This document shows, piece by piece, positions 29,538 through 40,513 of a stretch of DNA of 64,000 bases. Both the position numbers and the translations under genes were made by a program. Numbering within the stretch: position 1 is the first letter of the stretch; the number at the start of each line of letters is the position of its first letter. Below the pieces are notes generated by a model. It worked only from the letters and a program-made list of their open reading frames with translations. It was not told the DNA's origin and made no database searches. This DNA is from Escherichia coli (lineage in GTDB: Bacteria; Pseudomonadota; Gammaproteobacteria; Enterobacterales; Enterobacteriaceae), in the NCBI RefSeq assembly GCF_003334785.1, contig NZ_QOWV01000011.1. The stretch is one strand, 5' to 3'.

Positions 29538-30376
29538 CTGAAAGGCCCCTTCACGGTCAATGTGTGGATCATTAGCATTGGCCCTGCGACTACTGATTTT
29601 AACATCTAGGGAAACGTAGCTGATGTTTGGCTTCGATAAGATTCTGTAGCACCGCCTCAGTGGGGTTGTCAGAACATTCCGCTGCCGCCTTAAGAATATC
29701 GCTTACTAGAGATGAAACTGGTTGATTGTAATCCCGGTCGACCGTTACTCTATGTTTATCCGGATAATTTTGGCGTACACATTAAGTGAAGAAAACTTCA
29801 AAGTGATTTGAAACAGATGTTGTATTCACTGGCTCATTTACATTAACTTGAGTGTTGTTCAGCACATGTTGAAACGCAGCTGTAAGGAAGATGATACAGC
29901 CAAGATGTATCCTTCATTATGGGGATTGGCGCGATGACCACCACGGCTTAGCCCGATTGATTATTTGGAAATTGATTAGAATGCATAATCTGGGCTGAGC
30001 TCACTTAAAGTCTCTAATGTTTGACTTGGAGATTTGGGGGGCAGTGGCTTTCAGTTTTGTTAACTCTAACATCTGGTTTACGTTCCTTTTGGAACAAGAA
30101 GCAGAGGTCTGCTAAGTAATGGTTGTACTGCTTGTGATAGGTATGACTGCATGTTCAGCGAGCAAGAATGGCTTAAAAGTTCTGTTACTGAGCACCCCAT
30201 GAAGTTAGAACGATGTCATAACGTGCACGTAACCGTTGAACTGTTCTCTTACAGATAATCTCTACATAGCTATTATTGCTTAGGCGGTAGCTATGTAGAT
30301 GGTTTTTGTAATATTATATTAAAAGTTCATACAGCGACTATAGCATCATTGCGAAAAATATCAGGAGGTGAGTTTA

Positions 30377-32482
30377 ATGTTACGAAAAAGCAAACTTACA
30401 GAGATATATAAAAGGTTTGGTTTTACTGAAGAAAATACAGGTAACGAAAGTATTGCTGTATATTCTATTAAAACAGGGCACTACCATAACGCGGACATAC
30501 TTCCACTAAATAATGAGGTTAATGTAAATCAAACCTTTGAAGAATATAGGCAGTTAGGTTATGCATGTCAAATTAAAAAATATCAGTCTTATGAAGAAGC
30601 ACATAAGGAATTATTTAATGGCTTCTTTAGCGTCGATTCAACTAAAGAAAGGTTGATTAAAGATTATAATACTTTCACAGATTCAATTGTAAAAATTCAC
30701 TCACCTACTGCAACTTATTCCTACATAAATTCAAAATATTACTTAAATGGTGTTATTGGCGAAGCTAATGTTGTTACGGAAATATTAGAGAGAATACAAC
30801 ATAGGCGTCCAATTCTGTTTTTGATTGAGGCTGCAGCCGGTTTTGGAAAGACTTGCACGGCGTATGAATTATTGAGGGAGATTATAGTTAACAATATAGG
30901 GAAAATACCATTATTTTCAGAACTATCAAGGAATAGGCAAGCAAAAATATTCAGGTATGTACTATTAGATGAAATTGATAGAAGTTTTCCTTTGTTAAGC
31001 TCAGCCTTAGTAAGGAATGAAATAAGAGCAGGAAATGTACCAGTTATACTTGACGGGTTTGATGAACTATTGCATGAAAGTACAAACGGAATTGAAAATA
31101 ATTATGAAAAAACAGAGCCAATGCTGGAAACAATAAGTGAGCTTCTAACTGATAGTGCAAAAGTGGTTTTGACAACTCGAAGAACAGCTATATTTGACGG
31201 AGATGAATTCCATCAGTGGATAGCATCACATCAAGAAGATTTTGATGTGATAAGAATAAGAATTCATGAACCACAAATTGAAGACTGGCTTCCAGGTCAA
31301 CGTTTAGATGAAATTTCATCGACAGGATTTCCTCTTAACAAATTATCAAACCCTGTACTGCTATCATTTCTAAGATGCATCGACGACACCGACTTTAATA
31401 AAGTTATAAGCGACCCAACAACTATAGTGAGGAAGTATTTTGATTCAATGCTTGAGCGAGAAAGAAAAAGACAAGATTTATTAATGTCTATTGAAGATCA
31501 ATATACTATACTAAAAATAATAGCTGACGACATGGTCGAGGGTAACTACACATCTGAGTCTAGAGAGTATATATCGTTAGTCATAACTGAAAAGAATCAA
31601 CAACTCTTGGAGGCTACAAGAAAGCTTTATACTGTAGATGAAAGACCAACTACTGACGAATTAGTTAATAAATTAGCATCGCATGCTCTATTAGATCGGT
31701 CAGGCTCAGAAAACCAAGGTATTGGATTTGTTAATGAATTTGTTCTTGGTAATTTTGTTTCTGAAAATATTATTAATGATAAGTCAAATGAATGGATTGG
31801 TGATAAACGTTTTATAGAACCAGCAGTGCAATCTTATATGCCGAGGATCGATGATGAAAAAGAATTACTTTGGCATAGCTTAGAGTTTGCTTTATATTTT
31901 ATGTCAGGTAATGATAAAATCCTTTATAGTCATTTGCTTATAGGAAAAGTTCCATTAGATTTAAAAAATGATAGTGTTGAGCAATTGTCTATATCAAAAC
32001 TTTCTTTAGGCGATATAAATATAATACATGATACTATCTTTGTTGATTGTTCGTTTTTTAGCAGCATATTTACCTGTGGTAATTATAAAAACGTTACATT
32101 CGTGAACTGTTCTTTTATAGATTGTAGTTTTAACGAATTAAGTGGTAGGGAAGATATTTATTTTTTGGGATGTGAATGTGACAATGATGCTATTAATAAA
32201 AAATCTGTCGAGATAAACAGTGAAAATGATCACGATATTACAGATTGTGATATTTACATCTTAGAGAAGTTCTGTCCCAGAGGGAGTGTTAGCTATCATA
32301 AGCATCGGCCTATAAAAGGCTTATGTTCTAACAACAATCAATTTCAGTTAAGTGAAATACTCCATTCTTTAGATAAATTGAGGAAAGACGGTCTTTTACT
32401 TACGCCAGACAAGCGTTCGTTCCTTGAACTTAACATGGCAAGAATATCAGAGATTAAAGCAATTCTTGGGAGGAATTTCTGA
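30377..32482 (+). CDS. NACHT/STAND-type P-loop NTPase with C-terminal pentapeptide repeats
   Basis: Start at ATG 30377 with aggagg RBS; Walker A AAAGFGKT; NACHT-style Walker B VILDGFDEL; C-terminal run FVDCSF-FSSIF-TCGNY-KNVTF-VNCSF-IDCSF. Confidence 0.7.
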   Translation: MLRKSKLTEIYKRFGFTEENTGNESIAVYSIKTGHYHNADILPLNNEVNVNQTFEEYRQLGYACQIKKYQSYEEAHKELFNGFFSVDSTKERLIKDYNTFTDSIVKIHSPTATYSYINSKYYLNGVIGEANVVTEILERIQHRRPILFLIEAAAGFGKTCTAYELLREIIVNNIGKIPLFSELSRNRQAKIFRYVLLDEIDRSFPLLSSALVRNEIRAGNVPVILDGFDELLHESTNGIENNYEKTEPMLETISELLTDSAKVVLTTRRTAIFDGDEFHQWIASHQEDFDVIRIRIHEPQIEDWLPGQRLDEISSTGFPLNKLSNPVLLSFLRCIDDTDFNKVISDPTTIVRKYFDSMLERERKRQDLLMSIEDQYTILKIIADDMVEGNYTSESREYISLVITEKNQQLLEATRKLYTVDERPTTDELVNKLASHALLDRSGSENQGIGFVNEFVLGNFVSENIINDKSNEWIGDKRFIEPAVQSYMPRIDDEKELLWHSLEFALYFMSGNDKILYSHLLIGKVPLDLKNDSVEQLSISKLSLGDINIIHDTIFVDCSFFSSIFTCGNYKNVTFVNCSFIDCSFNELSGREDIYFLGCECDNDAINKKSVEINSENDHDITDCDIYILEKFCPRGSVSYHKHRPIKGLCSNNNQFQLSEILHSLDKLRKDGLLLTPDKRSFLELNMARISEIKAILGRNF

Positions 32483-33387
32483 TGTATAACGGGAATGAAT
32501 TGCGAATTATTCAAAGTTTGCAAAAAGATATAGAAGATGAACTTAATCGTATTGGATTACTTTATCGTTTTTTTTCGAGGACAAAATCAGAAAGCTCAAT
32601 AATTAAGAAATATGAAAAAGAGCCTAATAAATACTCAGAGGATGGTAAAAAAATTCAAGACTTATTTGGGGTTAGGATAATATTATATTTTCCTGATGAT
32701 TTATTTATTGCTCAAAAAACACTGGAGAAATTATTCGAAATTGAATCTAAAACCGTAGACGAAACCACGGCTAATCTCTTTGCGGCAACTCGATGCAATT
32801 ACGTCTTTAAGTTACCAGAAGTATTATCAAATGATAGTGTCTTATTAAAGAAATATTCTTATATTGATACTACTTTTGAAGTCCAATTTAGAACTATTTT
32901 ATCTGAAGGATGGCATGAAGTTGAGCATGATCTACGCTATAAGTGCAAAGAGGATTGGGTTGAGCATAATGACCTTAGTCGCGCGCTGAATGGAATTTAC
33001 GCCTCTTTGGAAACATCTGATTGGGGAATAATGAAGTTATTTGAGGATTTAGCATATAGAAATTATAAGTCAAGCGCATGGTCCGCTATGCTAAGAAATA
33101 AATTAAGATTGAGAATGGACGATAAGCTTGATGAAAAGATAATTTCAATAATTAATGAGAAAGAGCTTGGTAAAAAGTTTTATAGAATTGACAGAGATCG
33201 TTTGTTATCGTTAATGTTAGATTATAATATTGATATACCAATTAATCTTAATAATATAATTTACCTTTGTAATTATTTTTTCATAAAATCTACGGAGCTT
33301 CAGGATATAGCCCCTGCTTTAATAATGAAAAAGCTTACAGATGCTGATGAAAAATTCAATAAAAATACTATTTTAGCATCTAAATAA
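32482..33387 (+). CDS. RelA/SpoT-domain nucleotidyltransferase (alarmone-synthetase / toxSAS-like)
   Basis: Start overlaps upstream stop (TGATG); motifs FSRTKSESSIIKKYEK, DLFGVRIILYFPDD and EVQFRTILSEGWHEVEHD correspond to the RelA/SpoT synthetase fold (G/RxKS..S, D..G.RII, ExQIRT). Confidence 0.65.
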   Translation: MYNGNELRIIQSLQKDIEDELNRIGLLYRFFSRTKSESSIIKKYEKEPNKYSEDGKKIQDLFGVRIILYFPDDLFIAQKTLEKLFEIESKTVDETTANLFAATRCNYVFKLPEVLSNDSVLLKKYSYIDTTFEVQFRTILSEGWHEVEHDLRYKCKEDWVEHNDLSRALNGIYASLETSDWGIMKLFEDLAYRNYKSSAWSAMLRNKLRLRMDDKLDEKIISIINEKELGKKFYRIDRDRLLSLMLDYNIDIPINLNNIIYLCNYFFIKSTELQDIAPALIMKKLTDADEKFNKNTILASK

Positions 33388-33405
33388 TAACTATCTCCGG
33401 CTATT

Positions 33406-33433
33406 AAGTAGGCCTTGTATTTTAGGCCTACTT
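33406..33433. terminator. Hairpin downstream of the NTPase-RelA/SpoT pair
   Basis: Stem aagtaggcc/ggcctactt with 9-nt loop; A-run on plus side, so may serve either strand. Confidence 0.4.
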
Positions 33434-33766
33434 AAAAAGTTTCATTATGTGAAGTGATGATGATAGCAAATCTGCTATCTTTATGGTTGGATGCGAGAAA
33501 ATATTTTTATCCCGACACAACAACTGGTAATGATAGAAAATTTAAACCCAAAAATGCTACAGTAGCCTCAGCTCACAAACGGAGTATAAAGTGGCGGTTA
33601 CTCTTTAGTGGGAATACTGTAGATAGTTGATAAACTGGGCTGGATTTTCTTTTCTAACCGAAGGGAAGAAAAGCAAGGGGAACCCAAAGAAACAAGCGCA
33701 GCGGCTTCGTAGGGTTAGCCCTTGCTTCTTTTATAATTGGCATTATTCATTCAAGAACAATAGGAT

Positions 33767-33786
33767 CTTCGCTTGTACAAGCGAAG
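33767..33786. promoter_or_regulatory. Perfect 20-bp palindrome cttcgcttgtacaagcgaag
   Basis: Direct read; lies in 1-kb ORF-free AT-rich spacer downstream of ParB-like genes. Confidence 0.5.
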
Positions 33787-34439
33787 CTATAATAAAAAAT
33801 CAATTAATTATTTTAAAAGTATTAAGCAAGAGCCTATTGACATTCGTAAAATAAAAGTTATTTTTAATGTATGCCATAAATAAAAAGTTTTATGTCATAT
33901 GTATCCTGCACTATGTGCAGTTAATGTGCCACTTGTCCCATATATGGGAATATTGGAAAGGTTACTTTGTTTTGAAGTAGCCTTTCGTCCTTCAATATTC
34001 ACGATTACTTATTGCTATTACCAAGTCCAGTCGAATCGAAGAACATCTTTTATCTGAAACGACTCCTAATACCAGGTTGAAGCCACAATATCTCTCGCAT
34101 AAGTAGACCAAAGAAAAATTATGATATTAACTATGTGATTTTTTTTAGTGTTAAGTTGAATAATTATATACTGGAGAGTTTTCTGTACACTACCAATTGC
34201 TGGTTCATCTGTTCTGCCGCTGATGTTTCTGACTAATCTCCCGGTGACACAGAACTGTCCCTCTCTACCAGCCTTTATTCGACTCAATGTCCGGCTGCTG
34301 ATACGCAGTTATCCCTTCGTATCAATGACTGACTCTTAAACGCAATGCTTTGGTTGCTGGCGTATCTGACAGCTTCTTCGGCGTGAAGGTCGTTGTGTAA
34401 GTATACTTCTTGGTTTATTTAGGCTATATAAAACCATGA

Positions 34440-35336
34440 CTATGACTGGCTGTTTTCAGTAAGAGTCTTATCATCCAAAGAATTTATTCTAGAAATTCTT
34501 TTTAACTCATTAAGATAATCAACCTCGTTTTCTAAGAACCAATGAAGAACTTTAGAGTTGCCAAGTAATTTATTAATATATGACTGGATTATAACGAATT
34601 TCAACATATCTGAACCATACTCGGTTTGAAGTTTTTTCGTTTCTTCCGAAGTTGTTGCCATTTCTTGTTCCAGACGAAGTATGGTTTTTTTTATGTCCTT
34701 TTTATAGGGAGTGTTTTTCCCTTTATTTACTATCATCGATGACGGTGTTGCATCCAAGATGCTCATTGCAAATTTTTTACTATAATTATCAAAATTAATC
34801 ATTGTACCGACTGCTTCAATTTGACGAATTGGCTTCATTTTCCTCAAAACGTCAAATGTAGCCTTAGGTATAGGTTTATCAGAAAGTTTCGCAATTACAC
34901 TTGGATCTATGCCGTTCATCACATTAGCTTTATCTTTTATGGCATCAACAGATATGCCCAAAGCAGCACTAAGTTTTTCAATTGATACTTTTGCCAGAGA
35001 CTTAATTATCATTCTATGTTCTTCAACTACATTTATATGATTCACTTGTTTGTTAGGAGTGAAAGCATCATCTATGCTCGAAAGTATACATGGAGCTTTT
35101 TCTATATCTAAGTCTTTTAAAGCCTCAACCCTTAAATGGCCATCAAGTATCTTAGTGACATCTTTATCTTTGTCATAGAATACTATTATTGGTTCAATAA
35201 TACCCAAGCTTTCGATAGAGGTAACTATTTGATGATATTTATGGCTTCGCTTTACGTTTTCTAATAATTCCTTAGATGGAATTAACTTATTAGTTTCCAG
35301 GTAAATAAAATTTTTGCCAAAACGTATCTGAATCAT
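34440..35336 (-). CDS. ParB/Srx-fold (ParB-like nuclease domain) protein
   Basis: 298 aa; N-terminal ParB-like pattern ...IEPIIVFYDKDKDVTKILDGHLRVEALKDLDIEKAPCIL. Confidence 0.55.
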   Translation of the reverse strand: MIQIRFGKNFIYLETNKLIPSKELLENVKRSHKYHQIVTSIESLGIIEPIIVFYDKDKDVTKILDGHLRVEALKDLDIEKAPCILSSIDDAFTPNKQVNHINVVEEHRMIIKSLAKVSIEKLSAALGISVDAIKDKANVMNGIDPSVIAKLSDKPIPKATFDVLRKMKPIRQIEAVGTMINFDNYSKKFAMSILDATPSSMIVNKGKNTPYKKDIKKTILRLEQEMATTSEETKKLQTEYGSDMLKFVIIQSYINKLLGNSKVLHWFLENEVDYLNELKRISRINSLDDKTLTENSQS

Positions 35337-36229
35337 TTTGATACCTCTTTGTTTACTGGGTTTAATATCTGAGATGGTAGTTCTGAAAGATTCTCTTGTT
35401 CAAGTATATTTTGAAAGCTTTTATTCATCATTATGATGTTAAAAATCTCATTTATTATTAGTAGATTGGTTTTTATAAATTTCGAGTTGTTATAAACAGA
35501 TTTATGTTCAGCGATACTATTTTCATAAAGCTCAATCAACTCCTCTGCAGTCATCCTTTTTGATGGTTTGTGATAATAAAATCCGGCTGCTTTTGCACCT
35601 TTATTCCCAACTGTTCTTTGATTTAGAATGTATTTTATCTTTATAATGTCCCGACTTTTTATTAATTTTTTATCATATGCTTCGGTAAGAATATCTTGTG
35701 CTTCCTCAGTTTCACATCTTGCAAATTGCACTGCGAGATACAGAGGCAAATTACCCCGTTCGACTGCTGAGAGAAGTTTATGCTCTCCCTTATCAAGAAG
35801 CATATTAATACTGCTCACCCAGTTCGATGAATATCCAGTAATCTCACTTATTTCGGAGTCTGAAAGTCCTCTGATTTTCATGTCTTTAATCACCTGTAAT
35901 AACTCATTAGAACGTGGTCTTCTCCTTGCAATGTTTTCAACTAAACTCATAACGTAAGCATCTTCTTCTGATACATCTCTTATAATTGCTGGAATAATAG
36001 TTTCACCTAATGCAACAAGAGCCTCTATTCTCCCTTGACCACAAATTAAAGCATATTTGAAATCGTCTTCATCAATAGCTCTTACGCTTATAGGCTTGCT
36101 TAATCCTCTTTTTTTTATGCTTTCCTTTATTTCTTCATGCACTACCTTATTTCTTGTTCGTGGGTTAAGAAATTTTATTTTTGCAATCTCAATTTGAATT
36201 ATTGGGAATTCATTTTTTTCAGGCAGCAT
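35333..36229 (-). CDS. ParB/Srx-fold (ParB-like) protein
   Basis: 298 aa; ...KPISVRAIDEDDFKYALICGQGRIEALVALGETIIPAIIRDVSEEDAYVMSLVENIARR resembles ParB N-terminal domain; 4-nt overlap with downstream gene. Confidence 0.6.
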   Translation of the reverse strand: MLPEKNEFPIIQIEIAKIKFLNPRTRNKVVHEEIKESIKKRGLSKPISVRAIDEDDFKYALICGQGRIEALVALGETIIPAIIRDVSEEDAYVMSLVENIARRRPRSNELLQVIKDMKIRGLSDSEISEITGYSSNWVSSINMLLDKGEHKLLSAVERGNLPLYLAVQFARCETEEAQDILTEAYDKKLIKSRDIIKIKYILNQRTVGNKGAKAAGFYYHKPSKRMTAEELIELYENSIAEHKSVYNNSKFIKTNLLIINEIFNIIMMNKSFQNILEQENLSELPSQILNPVNKEVSK

Positions 36230-37775
36230 ATAGTTCCCTCACTTTCATGCGAGTAATAATTTGTAGAAATTTATCAAGATTATCAAATCTATAGAGATCT
36301 AACCGAATGTTGTTTGTTTCCATCATACACATTTTACTATATTCGTTTTCAATCTTTGGTATGATATAAAAATCAAGAGGTGAAATATTTTGTGAATTCA
36401 TTCGTATAACAATTGTTATGTCTGCTTTCTGTGAGTTATCAAACCGGACTTTCCATCTAAGTTTACCTGATTTCATATGTATGCATTTAGTAACAAGGAC
36501 GGAAATTAAAAACTCATCATTGATGTAAAGCATTGGGTAATATTTATACTCGTCTATATGACAGTTACTTTTTAATATTTCGCCCTTAAAATCCTCAATT
36601 ATCTCTGAGTAAAATGATCTTAGTGCTTCATTTATTTGGAGATAGCTGTAATCATGTTCTGGCTTATAACCAATCAAAGTATATGCTCTTAAAAGACCAC
36701 CAAATCGGGTTCTATAAACAGAAGATGAAGGGCCTGTATCATCTTCATCAATGATAAAGCCTGATAGTTTTCCATTAGATTCTAATTTTTCTTTTAGCTT
36801 TTCTAATAGATCTTCATTAGTCAAATGAATGGATCGGAGCTGAATTATTTCTTGAGCTTTATTATATTTTTTCTTTGAAATAATTGGTTTATATGCCTTG
36901 TCACATCTAATCCATTCATGTTTGGGGTTTTTTACAAGCTTACTTTTTAGTTTAGATGAGGTTTTGTTATATATGTTGTTTCCAATATATTTTTCATTTG
37001 TCAAAATTTGATGTATTTTTGCACGAGTCCATGATGTTCCATTTTCTGCAGGTATGCTCTGTTCATTTAATCTCTCAGCAATAATGAATTCTGGGACGTT
37101 ACTATCTATAAAGAGATCATAGATTCTATTTACAATTTTTATTTCATTTTTTGGTCCCGGAATTAATATTACCCTATCTGTTTGAATACTCTTTCTTTTG
37201 CGGAAATTCAATATTTCTTTAGCTATGCCATTTTCGTCTACTAAAAGACGTCTCAGCCCATAACCAGCCATACCGCCTTGATGATAACCAAGCTTTATTA
37301 AATTTACTTGCCCTATAAATACCTTTTCAGATAGATTCCTGCTGTGATATGCAGCACTTGATCTTTTTATATTCAGTATAACAGAGGACTCTAAAGGGAA
37401 ATCTTTAGTGGGTATAGGTTCGGAACAATATATAAGATCTACACCATTTCTTTCAAATAGAAAGGAATAATATGCAGCTTCATCACTATTTTGAAAACGA
37501 CCAAAACGGCTCACATCATAAAATAATACAGCCTGTATATCTATTTTCTTTTGTTCTACATCGCTAAGTAACTGCTGCAAAGAATGCCTGCCTACGATAC
37601 TGACTCCGCTCTTACCTGCATCATCGTAGGTATAAGCGATTTCCATATTGTTCTTTTCAGCATAATCTTTGATATATTCAGACTGATTATGTAAAGAATA
37701 TTGCTGATGGTCGGTAGACATCCTCAAGTACTGTGCGACCCTAACTCTATGATTTTTTTCATTTCCGCTAGCCAT
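36219..37775 (-). CDS. Large serine recombinase (resolvase + recombinase domains)
   Basis: N-terminal resolvase motif YLRMSTDHQQYSLHNQ with catalytic-Ser context and DVSRFGRF; downstream recombinase-domain pattern (SWTRAKIHQILTNEKYIGN); start at ATG 37775. Confidence 0.7.
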   Translation of the reverse strand: MASGNEKNHRVRVAQYLRMSTDHQQYSLHNQSEYIKDYAEKNNMEIAYTYDDAGKSGVSIVGRHSLQQLLSDVEQKKIDIQAVLFYDVSRFGRFQNSDEAAYYSFLFERNGVDLIYCSEPIPTKDFPLESSVILNIKRSSAAYHSRNLSEKVFIGQVNLIKLGYHQGGMAGYGLRRLLVDENGIAKEILNFRKRKSIQTDRVILIPGPKNEIKIVNRIYDLFIDSNVPEFIIAERLNEQSIPAENGTSWTRAKIHQILTNEKYIGNNIYNKTSSKLKSKLVKNPKHEWIRCDKAYKPIISKKKYNKAQEIIQLRSIHLTNEDLLEKLKEKLESNGKLSGFIIDEDDTGPSSSVYRTRFGGLLRAYTLIGYKPEHDYSYLQINEALRSFYSEIIEDFKGEILKSNCHIDEYKYYPMLYINDEFLISVLVTKCIHMKSGKLRWKVRFDNSQKADITIVIRMNSQNISPLDFYIIPKIENEYSKMCMMETNNIRLDLYRFDNLDKFLQIITRMKVRELYAA

Positions 37776-38057
37776 GCACAAAACCTCATGGATGATTCAA
37801 TACAATGTAGAGGATAAAATTGATCAAATTTTAACCGAATTCAACTGTTTTATCATTGATTAGAGCGAATTTGGTAGTTCTTCGAGGTGTATGATAATCG
37901 AGAAGAGATGTGAATTATTTAGCTGATATGACCGACAGCTTTCGTTATGTGGCCTCAAGGTACCCATTTGTAAATGGCTATGCTTAGTCCACATAGGTTA
38001 ATGGTGTGATCATTAATTCTTCAAATAAATCAAGATAGTTAACCCATCATGGAAGAG

Positions 38058-39287
38058 TTATGCGGCAATAACTTTGTATTTTTGAGACGAAACATAGTCA
38101 CTCCACCATTGCATGAGAACCACACGTTCTGTGAGATACTCTGCACGATTGTAGGCTGCAATTATTTCATCTTTTTTCGAGTGGGCAAGGGCGGCTTCTA
38201 AGACATCAGTTCTAAACTTGCCACACTCCTCAGCCGCCGTTCTAGCGATTGATCGCATACCATGAGCTACAAGCTCACCTCCGAAGCCCATACGGATTAT
38301 AGCCGCATTAGCTGTTTGTTCATGCATGTGATTGAGTGGAGCTTTGATACTGGGAAAAACCCACTCTCTATGCCCGCTGATGGCTTTCATTGAATCCAAG
38401 ACTCGCAAAGATTCTTTGCTCAGTGGAACTTTGTGAGGCTTCTTCATTTTCATAAACTCCGCCGGGATGTTCCACATGCTGGTTTCTATATCAATATCTG
38501 ACCATCTTGTGCGAACAGCTTCACCAGGGCGAACCCATGTGAGAAGTTGCCACTCAATCAGTAGCCTTGTTTCTAAACGGATAGAAGCATTGTTTAGAGC
38601 AACCAGGAAGCGGGGGAGTTCGGAAGGGGGTAATGCTGGCATATTCTGTTTTTTTGGCTTGCTGAACCGTTGCCCCAGGTTGTCAGCCGGATTGAATTCT
38701 ATGAGTTCTTCTGTTGCTGCATAGCGGAAAATTTCATTCAGGCGGGATATGACGCGGCGAAGTGTTTCAAGGACACCTCGTTTTTCTATGGGGTCTAAAT
38801 GCTGTTTAAGCATTTTAGGGCGAATCTCCTTAATGGGGGTATCACCCAACGTTGGAAAGATATTTCTCTCTAGGCTTCGCCAGATGTCGTTAGCATGATC
38901 CTGGGAGATGCCTGACGTTTTGACTTTCTCATCAAGCCACTTCTTGGCTACTGCTTGAAATGTATGTTCCGTTGCATCCTTAAGGGCATTGGCTTTGTGG
39001 GTGTTATGAACTTGTGGGTCTATACCATTTGCAAGCAACGACAAGTACTCATCACGTAAAGCTCGTGCCTTCGCAAGTGTAAGGTGAGGATAGGTTCCTA
39101 AGCTCACCTTAGTTCGCTTTTTGGTCACAGGCACTGCATATCTGAAATACCAATTTTTCTTTCCTCCCTTCGCTAAGGGGGCGATTCGCAGGAGCAAACC
39201 ATCGCCGTCAAAAAGGTTAACCTCTTTCTCGGCAGGTTTGGTGCTTTTGATTTCAGTGTCAGTGAGCTTCTTAGCGATTTTTGCCAT
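38058..39287 (-). CDS. P4-type tyrosine integrase (IntA-like) next to ssrA
   Basis: Start at MAKIAKKLTDTEIKS (ATG 39287) in ORF 38058-39431; C-terminal catalytic region with HGMRSIARTAA and terminal tyrosine context; directly 5' of tmRNA 3' end. Confidence 0.85.
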   Translation of the reverse strand: MAKIAKKLTDTEIKSTKPAEKEVNLFDGDGLLLRIAPLAKGGKKNWYFRYAVPVTKKRTKVSLGTYPHLTLAKARALRDEYLSLLANGIDPQVHNTHKANALKDATEHTFQAVAKKWLDEKVKTSGISQDHANDIWRSLERNIFPTLGDTPIKEIRPKMLKQHLDPIEKRGVLETLRRVISRLNEIFRYAATEELIEFNPADNLGQRFSKPKKQNMPALPPSELPRFLVALNNASIRLETRLLIEWQLLTWVRPGEAVRTRWSDIDIETSMWNIPAEFMKMKKPHKVPLSKESLRVLDSMKAISGHREWVFPSIKAPLNHMHEQTANAAIIRMGFGGELVAHGMRSIARTAAEECGKFRTDVLEAALAHSKKDEIIAAYNRAEYLTERVVLMQWWSDYVSSQKYKVIAA

Positions 39288-39453
39288 GTTTGGGACCCTC
39301 ATGTTTTGGACCCTTTGTGTTGGGTCCCAAAAAGGGTGCCATAACGAGTAGATTCTAGCAATTCTCGGTAGACTACTATAGACGTAAAAAAGCCCGCAAG
39401 GCTGGTTCCATGCGGGCTTGATAGACTTCACTGAACTTCAATATATCAAAAAT

Positions 39454-39816
39454 TGGTGGAGCTGGCGGGAGTTGAACCCGCGTCCGAAATTCCTACATCC
39501 TCGGTACTACATGCTTAGTCAGTCTTTACATTCGCTTGCCAGCTGCGGACGGACACGCCACTAACAAACTAGCCTGATTAAGTTTTAACGCTTCAACCCC
39601 AGGCAGGGCTTCCACGCGATCTCTTTTGGGTTTGACCTCTCTTGATCCCCGTCCTAAGAGCGGAGGCTAGGGAGAGAGGGCTCTAAGCAGGTTATTAAGC
39701 TGCTAAAGCGTAGTTTTCGTCGTTTGCGACTATTTTTTGCGGCTTTTTACGAGGCCAACCGCCCCTCGGCATGCACCTTGGGTTTCGCAAATCCCGTCGA
39801 ATCCAGAATCAGCCCC
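39454..39816 (-). ncRNA. ssrA: tmRNA (SsrA)
   Basis: 363 nt; minus-strand sense begins ggggctgattctggattcgacggg and ends ...gggttcaactcccgccagctccacca; tag-encoding region present. Confidence 0.95.
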
Positions 39817-40030
39817 AATGTGTAAAGGTAAGTATACCAGATTTATGAGCGCCATGACCAGCCTCAATGGCGTTATCGTTAAAGATTTAGCACCCATGTA
39901 GCCTGATTTTTATTCGATTAAGCAATGGGATGGCAACATTTGTGTCGGATGTGATAGCCAATAAGATGTTCATTCGCGCCGCCGGAGAGGGAGGCGCGGT
40001 GAGGAACTGGTCAATAATTGGAGTGCAGGT

Positions 40031-40513
40031 TTAACGGTGGGCGTTTTTCATGATACGTGCTTTATCCACCTGCCATTCGCGCTCTTTGATATCTGAACGT
40101 TTATCGTGCTGTTTCTTACCTTTGGCGACGCCGATTTTCACTTTGCACCAGGCATTTTTCCAGTACAGGGAGAGCGCCACTACGGTATAGCCTTCTCGAT
40201 TGACGCGACCGTACAATGAGTCCAGTTCGCGCTGGTTGAGAAGTAACTTGCGGGTACGGGTAGGATCGCACACCACATGCGTGGAGGCCACGGCCATTGG
40301 CGTGATGTTAGCGCCAAACAGAAATGCCTCTCCGTCACGCAGAAGGACGTAGCTGTCGCTGATATTGGCTTTTCCTGCGCGCAGGGATTTAACTTCCCAG
40401 CCTTGCAGGGCAAGTCCCGCTTCGAACTCTTCTTCGATAAAGTATTCGTGACGGGCGCGCTTGTTAAGCGCGATGGTCGCTGAACCAGGTTTATGTGCTT
40501 TTTTCTTCGTCAT
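40031..40513 (-). CDS. smpB: SsrA-binding protein SmpB
   Basis: 160 aa; sequence recognised; adjacent to ssrA. Confidence 0.93.

Follow-up and report, generated by a model that had tools for sequence, protein, structure and literature searches.

The large serine recombinases, among them the phage integrases phiC31, Bxb1, SPbeta SprA and TP901-1 as well as the transposases TnpX/TndX and CcrA/B of SCCmec, share a serine catalytic domain, a long alpha-E helix and a recombinase domain (PF07508). In the phage integrases a zinc-ribbon/coiled-coil domain reads the attachment (att) sites and sets the directionality of the reaction. The ParB, RepB, KorB and Noc proteins are clamps that depend on cytidine triphosphate (CTP), with a ParB_N domain, a helix-turn-helix and a RepB-type C-terminal domain. 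The features of both families meet in an operon on a 64,000-nt stretch of Escherichia coli DNA (assembly GCF_003334785.1, contig NZ_QOWV01000011.1; the whole stretch is referred to as the window), where the gene of a large serine recombinase is followed by two ParB-like genes, here called parBA and parBB. Judging from sequence comparison across genomes, this trio is an ancient, conserved and horizontally travelling operon of mobile islands and plasmids. We read it as one functional unit, which in the window resides on an integrative mobilisable island at ssrA, the gene of the transfer-messenger RNA (tmRNA).

Serine recombinases that operate with partner proteins have been described before. Excision of the fdxN element in Anabaena relies on XisF, a large serine recombinase that needs the two accessory proteins XisH and XisI; unlike the partners in the trio, these are not ParB-like, and the XisF system excises one developmental element in cyanobacteria. 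The parCBA operon of RK2/RP4 is a three-gene multimer-resolution operon that is built around a serine resolvase and stabilises a mobile replicon, but its ParA is a small resolvase and its 'ParB' is of the staphylococcal-nuclease type and unrelated to the ParB/Srx fold. The trio recombinase departs from the other large serine recombinases in having neither zinc ribbon nor coiled coil, in ending in a C-terminal domain of its own, and in that its gene is always followed by the two ParB-like genes. The ParB proteins of the trio, in turn, differ from the CTP-dependent clamps in that they have no ParA partner, carry a box II that reads GQGR or GHxR rather than GERR, and occur as two diverged paralogues that are translationally coupled to the recombinase. 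No description of the trio came up when the literature was searched for its protein accessions, its annotation wording and related keywords.

A serine recombinase with a C-terminal domain of its own

The operon lies on the minus strand of the window. The recombinase gene (36219..37781) overlaps the upstream ParB gene, parBA (35333..36229), by 11 nt, and parBA overlaps the downstream gene, parBB (34440..35336), by 4 nt; the recombinase open reading frame (ORF) runs to 520 aa when read from a TTG codon, whereas RefSeq begins it at the ATG at 37775, which gives 518 aa. An earlier note, made from the sequence alone, had described three co-directional, overlapping minus-strand genes that encode a 518-aa serine recombinase with resolvase and recombinase domains and two 298-aa paralogous ParB-like proteins (GQGR and GHLR variants), and had placed them some 280 bp from a P4-type tyrosine integrase, such that two unrelated recombinases stand side by side. 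This description stands: the ORFs are confirmed, both ParB proteins have ParB_N and RepB domains with a distant paralogy, profile searches (Pfam, NCBIfam and PHROGs) uphold the ParB-like assignment, and the integrase gene (38058..39431, minus strand; NCBIfam PRK09692, 2.7e-133), with its stop at 38058, is 276 bp from the start of the recombinase ORF.

The recombinase belongs to an unusual subfamily of the large serine recombinases. Pfam recognises a Resolvase domain at residues 16-154 (1.4e-21) and a Recombinase domain at residues 212-314 (1.1e-21), the best NCBIfam match is CcrB (7e-18, residues 11-311), and the catalytic set Y16, R18, S20, Q24, D87, R90 and R93 is invariant among 43 family members. 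Its catalytic domain, long alpha-E helix and PF07508 domain are succeeded by a helical segment and, by predicted structure, a PD-(D/E)xK-like beta domain. The SPbeta, Bxb1 and phiC31 integrases are the best structural matches of an AlphaFold2 model with a predicted local distance difference test score (pLDDT) of 87, mostly over ~320-370 alignment columns, which we read as the catalytic and recombinase domains of the predicted structure. In some relatives (P0121 and P0122, 1057 aa) two such recombinases are apparently fused in tandem within one protein.

The recombinase has no Pfam match to PF13408 (Zn_ribbon_recom) and no four-cysteine motif; in the predicted structure, a PD-(D/E)xK-like (restriction-endonuclease-like) fold stands where the zinc ribbon/coiled coil would be. 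This domain and the helical segment make up the C-terminal 200 residues. Its predicted fold resembles, among others, the N-terminal domain of Eco15I and NhoI, and it is also like a homing endonuclease; a weak Pfam match to a homing-endonuclease-associated repeat covers residues 321-366. According to AFDB50 the C-terminal domain is confined to members of this recombinase family. Strong conservation is limited to D452, D468, R440 and W441, and there is no ExK. With so few conserved residues nuclease activity cannot be deduced, and since only part of the catalytic motif is conserved the role of the domain is probably to bind DNA or protein.

The ParB pair

ParBA combines a ParB_N domain (Pfam, 5.4e-13), a helix-turn-helix and a RepB-type C-terminal domain (4.4e-7), and in ParBB a diverged ParB_N domain (7.8e-5) precedes a strong RepB C-terminal domain (6.8e-24). 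Sequence searches of the PDB relate ParBA to Spo0J (1e-11) and ParBB to Noc (7e-6), and for the trio as a whole the NCBIfam, PHROGs and PDB searches are consistent with the Pfam assignments. The two proteins are distant paralogues only (BLASTP, 30% over 63 aa, E = 0.003), and the ParB_N motifs are kept in both. The ParBA family retains NPRxRN, CGQGR(L/I)EA and MSLVENxARR, near ParB boxes I-III, and ParBA aligns with Spo0J through boxes II and III, where ENxARR corresponds to ENLQR. The ParBB family is more diverged and retains LDGHxR, DDEAFTYNK and QEH. Box II reads GQGRIEA in ParBA and GHLRVEA in ParBB (family consensus CGQGR and LDGHxR, respectively), and the canonical CTP-binding sequence GERRxR is absent from both.

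Distribution, synteny and selection

An initial protein search was not informative, as enterobacterial sequences of at least 95% identity filled its results. When 1.84 billion representative proteins were searched, 1351 representatives of the recombinase family were found at a cut-off of E < 1e-30; most of the best matches are ~520 aa long and align over their full length. Scanning one genome per species gave at least 574 confirmed loci, and the locus comparisons that follow use the best 80 of them, with recombinases 43-48% identical. Their hosts are mainly Alpha- and Betaproteobacteria, and further include Halothiobacillus, Lysobacterales, Desulfosarcina, Myxococcales, Bdellovibrionaceae, Verrucomicrobia and Acidiferrales. 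Where a locus extends far enough downstream, orthologues of first ParBA and then ParBB come after the recombinase gene in essentially every case among the 80, mostly with the stop codon of one gene overlapping the start of the next, and a metagenomic relative of 40% identity displays the same Pfam pattern. The ratio of nonsynonymous to synonymous substitution rates (dN/dS) relative to diverged enterobacterial copies is 0.05-0.18 for each of the three genes, a sign of strong purifying selection, and they are therefore not remnants. The earlier note had raised the possibility that the recombinase is a truncated, inactive relic; the invariant catalytic residues, including an intact S20, and the dN/dS values exclude this.

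Mobile elements beyond the chromosome carry the operon too. The recombinase was found by tblastn on 67 plasmids, and on both of those that were inspected, pAtC58 of Agrobacterium fabrum and a megaplasmid of P. aeruginosa, two genes with RepB C-terminal domains follow it; a further 141 IMG/VR contigs contain the recombinase, although its position at the edges of such contigs was given no weight, as provirus callers may trim their boundaries at integrase genes. One record was discarded: the recombinase on a 13.5-kb linear 'Lactiplantibacillus plantarum plasmid' (L205, NZ_CP110863.1) resides in DNA with a GC content of 62-71%, and the record is therefore almost certainly a contaminating proteobacterial contig. 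More than one family member can occur on a contig. Two full trios face each other ~56 kb apart in one contig of a Pseudolabrys metagenome-assembled genome (MAG; L017 and L023), and in Variovorax another recombinase of this family stands alone (L035:14447-16057), convergent with the trio and 1.1 kb after parBB.

Occurrence in E. coli

Among 5426 complete E. coli genomes, 657-662 (12%) contain the trio block, nearly always as a single copy, and all 664 places are chromosomal; plasmid and phage records hold no DNA similar to the E. coli trio block. The matching integrase allele is present in about as many genomes, and its matches continue through the spacer adjoining the trio, a continuation not seen for the ssrA integrases (~79% identical) that belong to other islands. 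No gain or loss of the trio apart from this integrase allele was seen in the 5426 genomes. In REL606, BL21(DE3) and C41, IS1 comes after integrase and trio and the remaining island is gone, and CH468 has a trio variant of 94.7% identity beside a decayed integrase and other cargo (HxsABCD and TIGR04141). The 47-bp 3' tail of the operon (34393..34439, minus strand) is kept together with it in a second E. coli backbone lineage, whose sequence diverges from the window beyond 34393. We considered a fixed cargo junction downstream of parBB, comparable to an integron attI site, and rejected it: only these two backbone lineages share the boundary at 34393, and the other breakpoints are scattered.

A candidate RNA motif downstream of parBB

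A conserved element of ~115-135 nt occurs on the sense strand after the operon in 37 of the 80 loci, most of which are from Alphaproteobacteria, and in all but one of the 37 it starts within ~110 nt of the parBB stop codon (in L065 it lies 3.9 kb downstream). The element was mapped, for instance, to L060:13354-13510, L014:13366-13523 and L052:4989-5145, and to about 70 other loci, and its core reads GGGGACCCGGACCC..AGCGCGGGGACCGC..GGGGAUGGCGGCGAACCCG. A six-helix structure derived from 31 sequences is 98.2% paired with nine compensatory pairs, values that none of 500 shuffled controls reach; when 66 distinct sequences were aligned to the model, compensatory changes appeared in 14 of 27 pairs. 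Overall, the element has five to six helices, with 98-99% of cells paired and 9-14 compensatory pairs. The frequent G-U pairs on the sense strand argue for an RNA rather than duplex DNA, and since Rfam 15 contains no match we regard it as a candidate new motif; literature searches with its sequence strings returned no description.

The motif is patchy on the recombinase tree and absent from the E. coli and betaproteobacterial copies: its model scores at most 5 bits in the window with filters off, and the E. coli untranslated regions give no sign of structured RNA (z-scores -0.59 and -0.29). A pattern scan of IMG/VR detected 37 instances, most of them after the trio. Five instances without the trio adjoin convergent tail-fibre-like genes, and there homology begins exactly at the 5' end of the motif.

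Neighbourhoods of the trio

Few neighbours are conserved around the 80 related loci. One is a small divergent ORF of 100-150 aa just upstream of the recombinase gene in 37 loci (L014:9347-9802, L086:8532-8939, L087:8486-8839 and 34 others), which has the core motif MRWTGASERTVKxW..GPSGxHL and no NCBIfam match, and which may encode a regulator. In 15 loci the position is held by another small ORF, which is rich in cysteine, and the E. coli copy has neither. Other recurrent neighbours are Fic-family proteins (12 loci), ParE-like toxins (eight), AbiEii-like proteins and methyltransferases; on pAtC58 an AbiEii-family toxin and a DUF6088 protein stand on one side of the trio and Fic on the other, and in three loci ZacABC comes after the trio. 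Tyrosine integrases lie within 10 kb in 14 of the 80 loci, several of them directly adjoining, and tRNA genes within 4 kb in eight. Homologues of the relaxase, NACHT and RelA-like genes of the E. coli island are absent near the trio in all 80 loci, and a functional link to them was accordingly dismissed.

Two comparisons suggest that the trio behaves as a cassette. In seven Rhodobacteraceae genomes of different genera a common block of ~4.0 kb, 92-94% identical, extends from ~480-509 bp upstream of the recombinase gene to ~130 bp past parBB in reshuffled flanks; its ends show neither terminal nor shared repeats. The second case is an enterobacterial contig flagged as proviral (L098), which aligns with window positions 34465-39490. 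Integrase and spacer are mostly 94-99% identical apart from one patch of 76-77%, but the trio is only ~83% identical, with the switch in identity near the recombinase start, and integrase and trio therefore have separate histories. The 95% identity of the integrase-recombinase spacer to this contig might be taken for constraint on the spacer; as the integrase is equally conserved, it points to a recombination mosaic and is not proof of constraint.

A larger block of 11.9 kb is 97% identical between a Halothiobacillus MAG of the Gammaproteobacteria (L014, 8417-20282) and a Pararhodobacter of the Alphaproteobacteria (L036, 8420-20285), which implies a recent transfer between classes. Besides the trio it comprises a ParE-like gene, the small divergent ORF, the RNA motif and ZacABC, and in L014 it sits between IS481 and IS66 transposase genes (IS, insertion sequence). 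With IS481 and IS66 at its boundaries and ends that vary between pairs, this ~12-kb block was rejected as an element with defined ends.

What the trio may do

The account that we favour, tentatively and with less than even confidence, is that the trio is a portable site-specific recombination module that serves the element carrying it, with the ParB pair as a nucleotide-dependent DNA-binding accessory. ParBA and ParBB would form a hetero-oligomeric, nucleotide-dependent complex on DNA that marks a site in cis and recruits or licenses the recombinase. The pair would supply the site choice and control of synapsis that are normally given by the missing zinc-ribbon/coiled-coil domain, and recombination might benefit the carrier by resolving tandem arrays or multimers of the island, or by exchanging DNA next to the operon. 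This account draws support from the strict synteny, the invariant catalytic residues, the dN/dS values and the missing zinc ribbon, and from the mobile contexts in which the trio is found, namely integrases, tRNA genes, plasmids and IMG/VR contigs. The size of the recombinase family, its exclusive C-terminal domain, the ParB_N motifs kept in both paralogues and the cassette-like behaviour in L098 and Rhodobacteraceae count in its favour as well. The trio furthermore persists where the island is otherwise gone (REL606/BL21) or the integrase has decayed (CH468). Several observations weigh on the other side. No recombination sites were identified, and the repeats in its surroundings do not exceed chance: a search of 33300-39900 gave AT-rich chance matches only, with no convincing direct or inverted repeats that could serve as flanking att sites, and the 3' end of ssrA has no repeat of 13 nt or more elsewhere in the window. 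E. coli shows no rearrangement polymorphism that can be ascribed to the recombinase, the breakpoints downstream of parBB being scattered and IS-related. Finally, the genes around the trio are largely those of defence and toxin-antitoxin systems, which is equally consistent with a role in defence.

Such a role would make the trio a new anti-phage or anti-plasmid system, in which the ParB-like pair senses or loads on foreign DNA and the recombinase breaks, scrambles or integrates it. We think this unlikely, though far from negligible. The tmRNA locus is a hotspot of defence islands in E. coli (PMC10121019), where the trio keeps company with NACHT and RelA/SpoT-like genes and, in CH468, with HxsABCD and TIGR04141. 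Elsewhere it is found near ZacABC, near an AbiEii-family toxin with a DUF6088 protein, near Fic and, recurrently, near ParE-like genes; its sporadic, horizontally transferred distribution (12% of E. coli) is typical of defence operons, and the recombinase bears a predicted nuclease fold. Yet the nuclease motif is incomplete, and anything that resides on islands is expected near defence genes. PADLOC v2 gives no defence-system model for the trio, its sole match there being a weak one of the ParB_N type between ParBB and a type II methyltransferase model, and no named anti-phage family of NCBIfam applies. Site-specific recombinases are not known to act as defence effectors.

The trio could also be a selfish mobile cassette that has landed beside the integrase in E. 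coli, with a recombinase that excises and inserts it and a ParB pair that picks the target or the direction. The recurrence of the homology ends of the ~4-kb Rhodobacteraceae block at -480/-509 and +130, the reshuffling of left and right flanks between copies, the divergence of the trio independently of the integrase in L098, and the occurrence of one RNA motif with tail-fibre genes in some loci after the trio and in others without it all speak for mobility of the trio on its own, and the predicted likeness of the C-terminal domain to homing endonucleases would fit. Neither the block ends nor the surroundings of the window copy have terminal repeats or att-like sites, however; there is almost always one copy per genome, the 5426 E. 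coli genomes show no presence/absence polymorphism of the trio alone, and the larger common blocks are bounded by IS elements. We therefore hold this reading to be distinctly improbable. The earlier note had proposed a nested serine-recombinase element, and for the window this does not hold up, as flanking repeats are missing and the trio is never found apart from the integrase allele in E. coli.

Another of its proposals, a partition-like module, fares no better. An iterated search seeded with Soj detected no ParA/Soj gene within 10 kb in 79 of the 80 loci, nor is there one in the window, and all 664 E. coli places are chromosomal. The related idea that the trio is a stable-inheritance module, whose recombinase resolves multimers and whose ParB proteins bind a centromere-like site of the excised island or plasmid, is very unlikely. 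ParB_N, helix-turn-helix and RepB C-terminal domain are the architecture of centromere-binding partition proteins, the trio occurs on 67 plasmids including pAtC58, and resolvase and partition genes often adjoin on plasmids. Against this, the ParA/Soj gene of the one remaining locus pairs with a separate ParB gene, box II has GQGR or GHxR instead of GERR, a single palindrome was seen rather than a parS array, the E. coli copies are all chromosomal, and the trio is kept in REL606, where nothing is left to partition. Taken together, the data exclude that the trio is a decayed remnant or a classical partition locus and, for the window, that it is a nested element with recognisable ends.

A more elaborate picture would combine several of these features: a heterodimeric nucleotide switch of the ParB type that loads on DNA and directs a zinc-ribbon-less recombinase with a homing-endonuclease-like domain, with which mobile elements capture, exchange or attack DNA, and to which a dedicated 3' structured RNA belongs in many alphaproteobacterial copies. 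We consider this combination rather unlikely.

Surroundings of the operon in the window

The window is E. coli chromosome, in which the island is a low-GC region to the left of ssrA (39454..39816, minus strand), its integration site; smpB is at 40031-40513. The 276-bp spacer between integrase and recombinase (37782..38057, minus strand) contains a promoter-like site at 37856-37828 and a near-perfect palindrome of 16 bp, AAAATTGATCAATTTT, at 37816-37831. Two further enterobacterial copies have it as a perfect palindrome. It is a candidate operator, but as a single-copy sequence that occurs no more than by chance it is a lead rather than a finding.

Directly downstream of the operon, 34066-34392 is higher-GC DNA that resembles sequences beside IS3-family transposases on plasmids of Klebsiella, Erwinia and Pantoea (77%, 95 nt). 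Some E. coli records label it as an IS3 transposase, and it is probably an IS remnant at the cargo boundary. Further away, at 30368-33387 on the plus strand, the gene of a 704-aa NACHT-type ATPase overlaps the start of a gene for a 301-aa RelA/SpoT-like nucleotidyltransferase. The pair gives weak matches only (GTP diphosphokinase YjbM family, 2.7e-7; PADLOC PDC-S33, 8e-5) and appears, from sequence, to be a candidate defence system of two genes that is so far uncharacterised. For strain 300709, RefSeq annotates only an 87-aa RelA/SpoT coding sequence (locus 18583-18846) and, apart from it, a hypothetical ORF of 126 aa where the window has the 301-aa ORF. A tRNA-Met gene at 13229-13304 stands within the low-GC region, ~25 kb to the left of ssrA, and the stretch from ~10 kb to ssrA may on this account comprise more than one island.

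Significance

About one in eight complete E. coli genomes carry this operon, including REL606 and BL21(DE3), and do so under generic annotations only. BL21 and REL606 offer a natural minimal context of integrase and trio alone, which makes the trio directly testable. It joins two well-studied families, the large serine recombinases that serve as tools of genome engineering and the ParB CTP switches, and neither field explains their pairing. How the ParB pair substitutes for the missing domain could reveal a new way of targeting or gating serine recombination, and the operon could explain how defence islands are maintained or remodelled. If the picture that includes the RNA is true, the trio would be a serine recombinase system with an RNA component.

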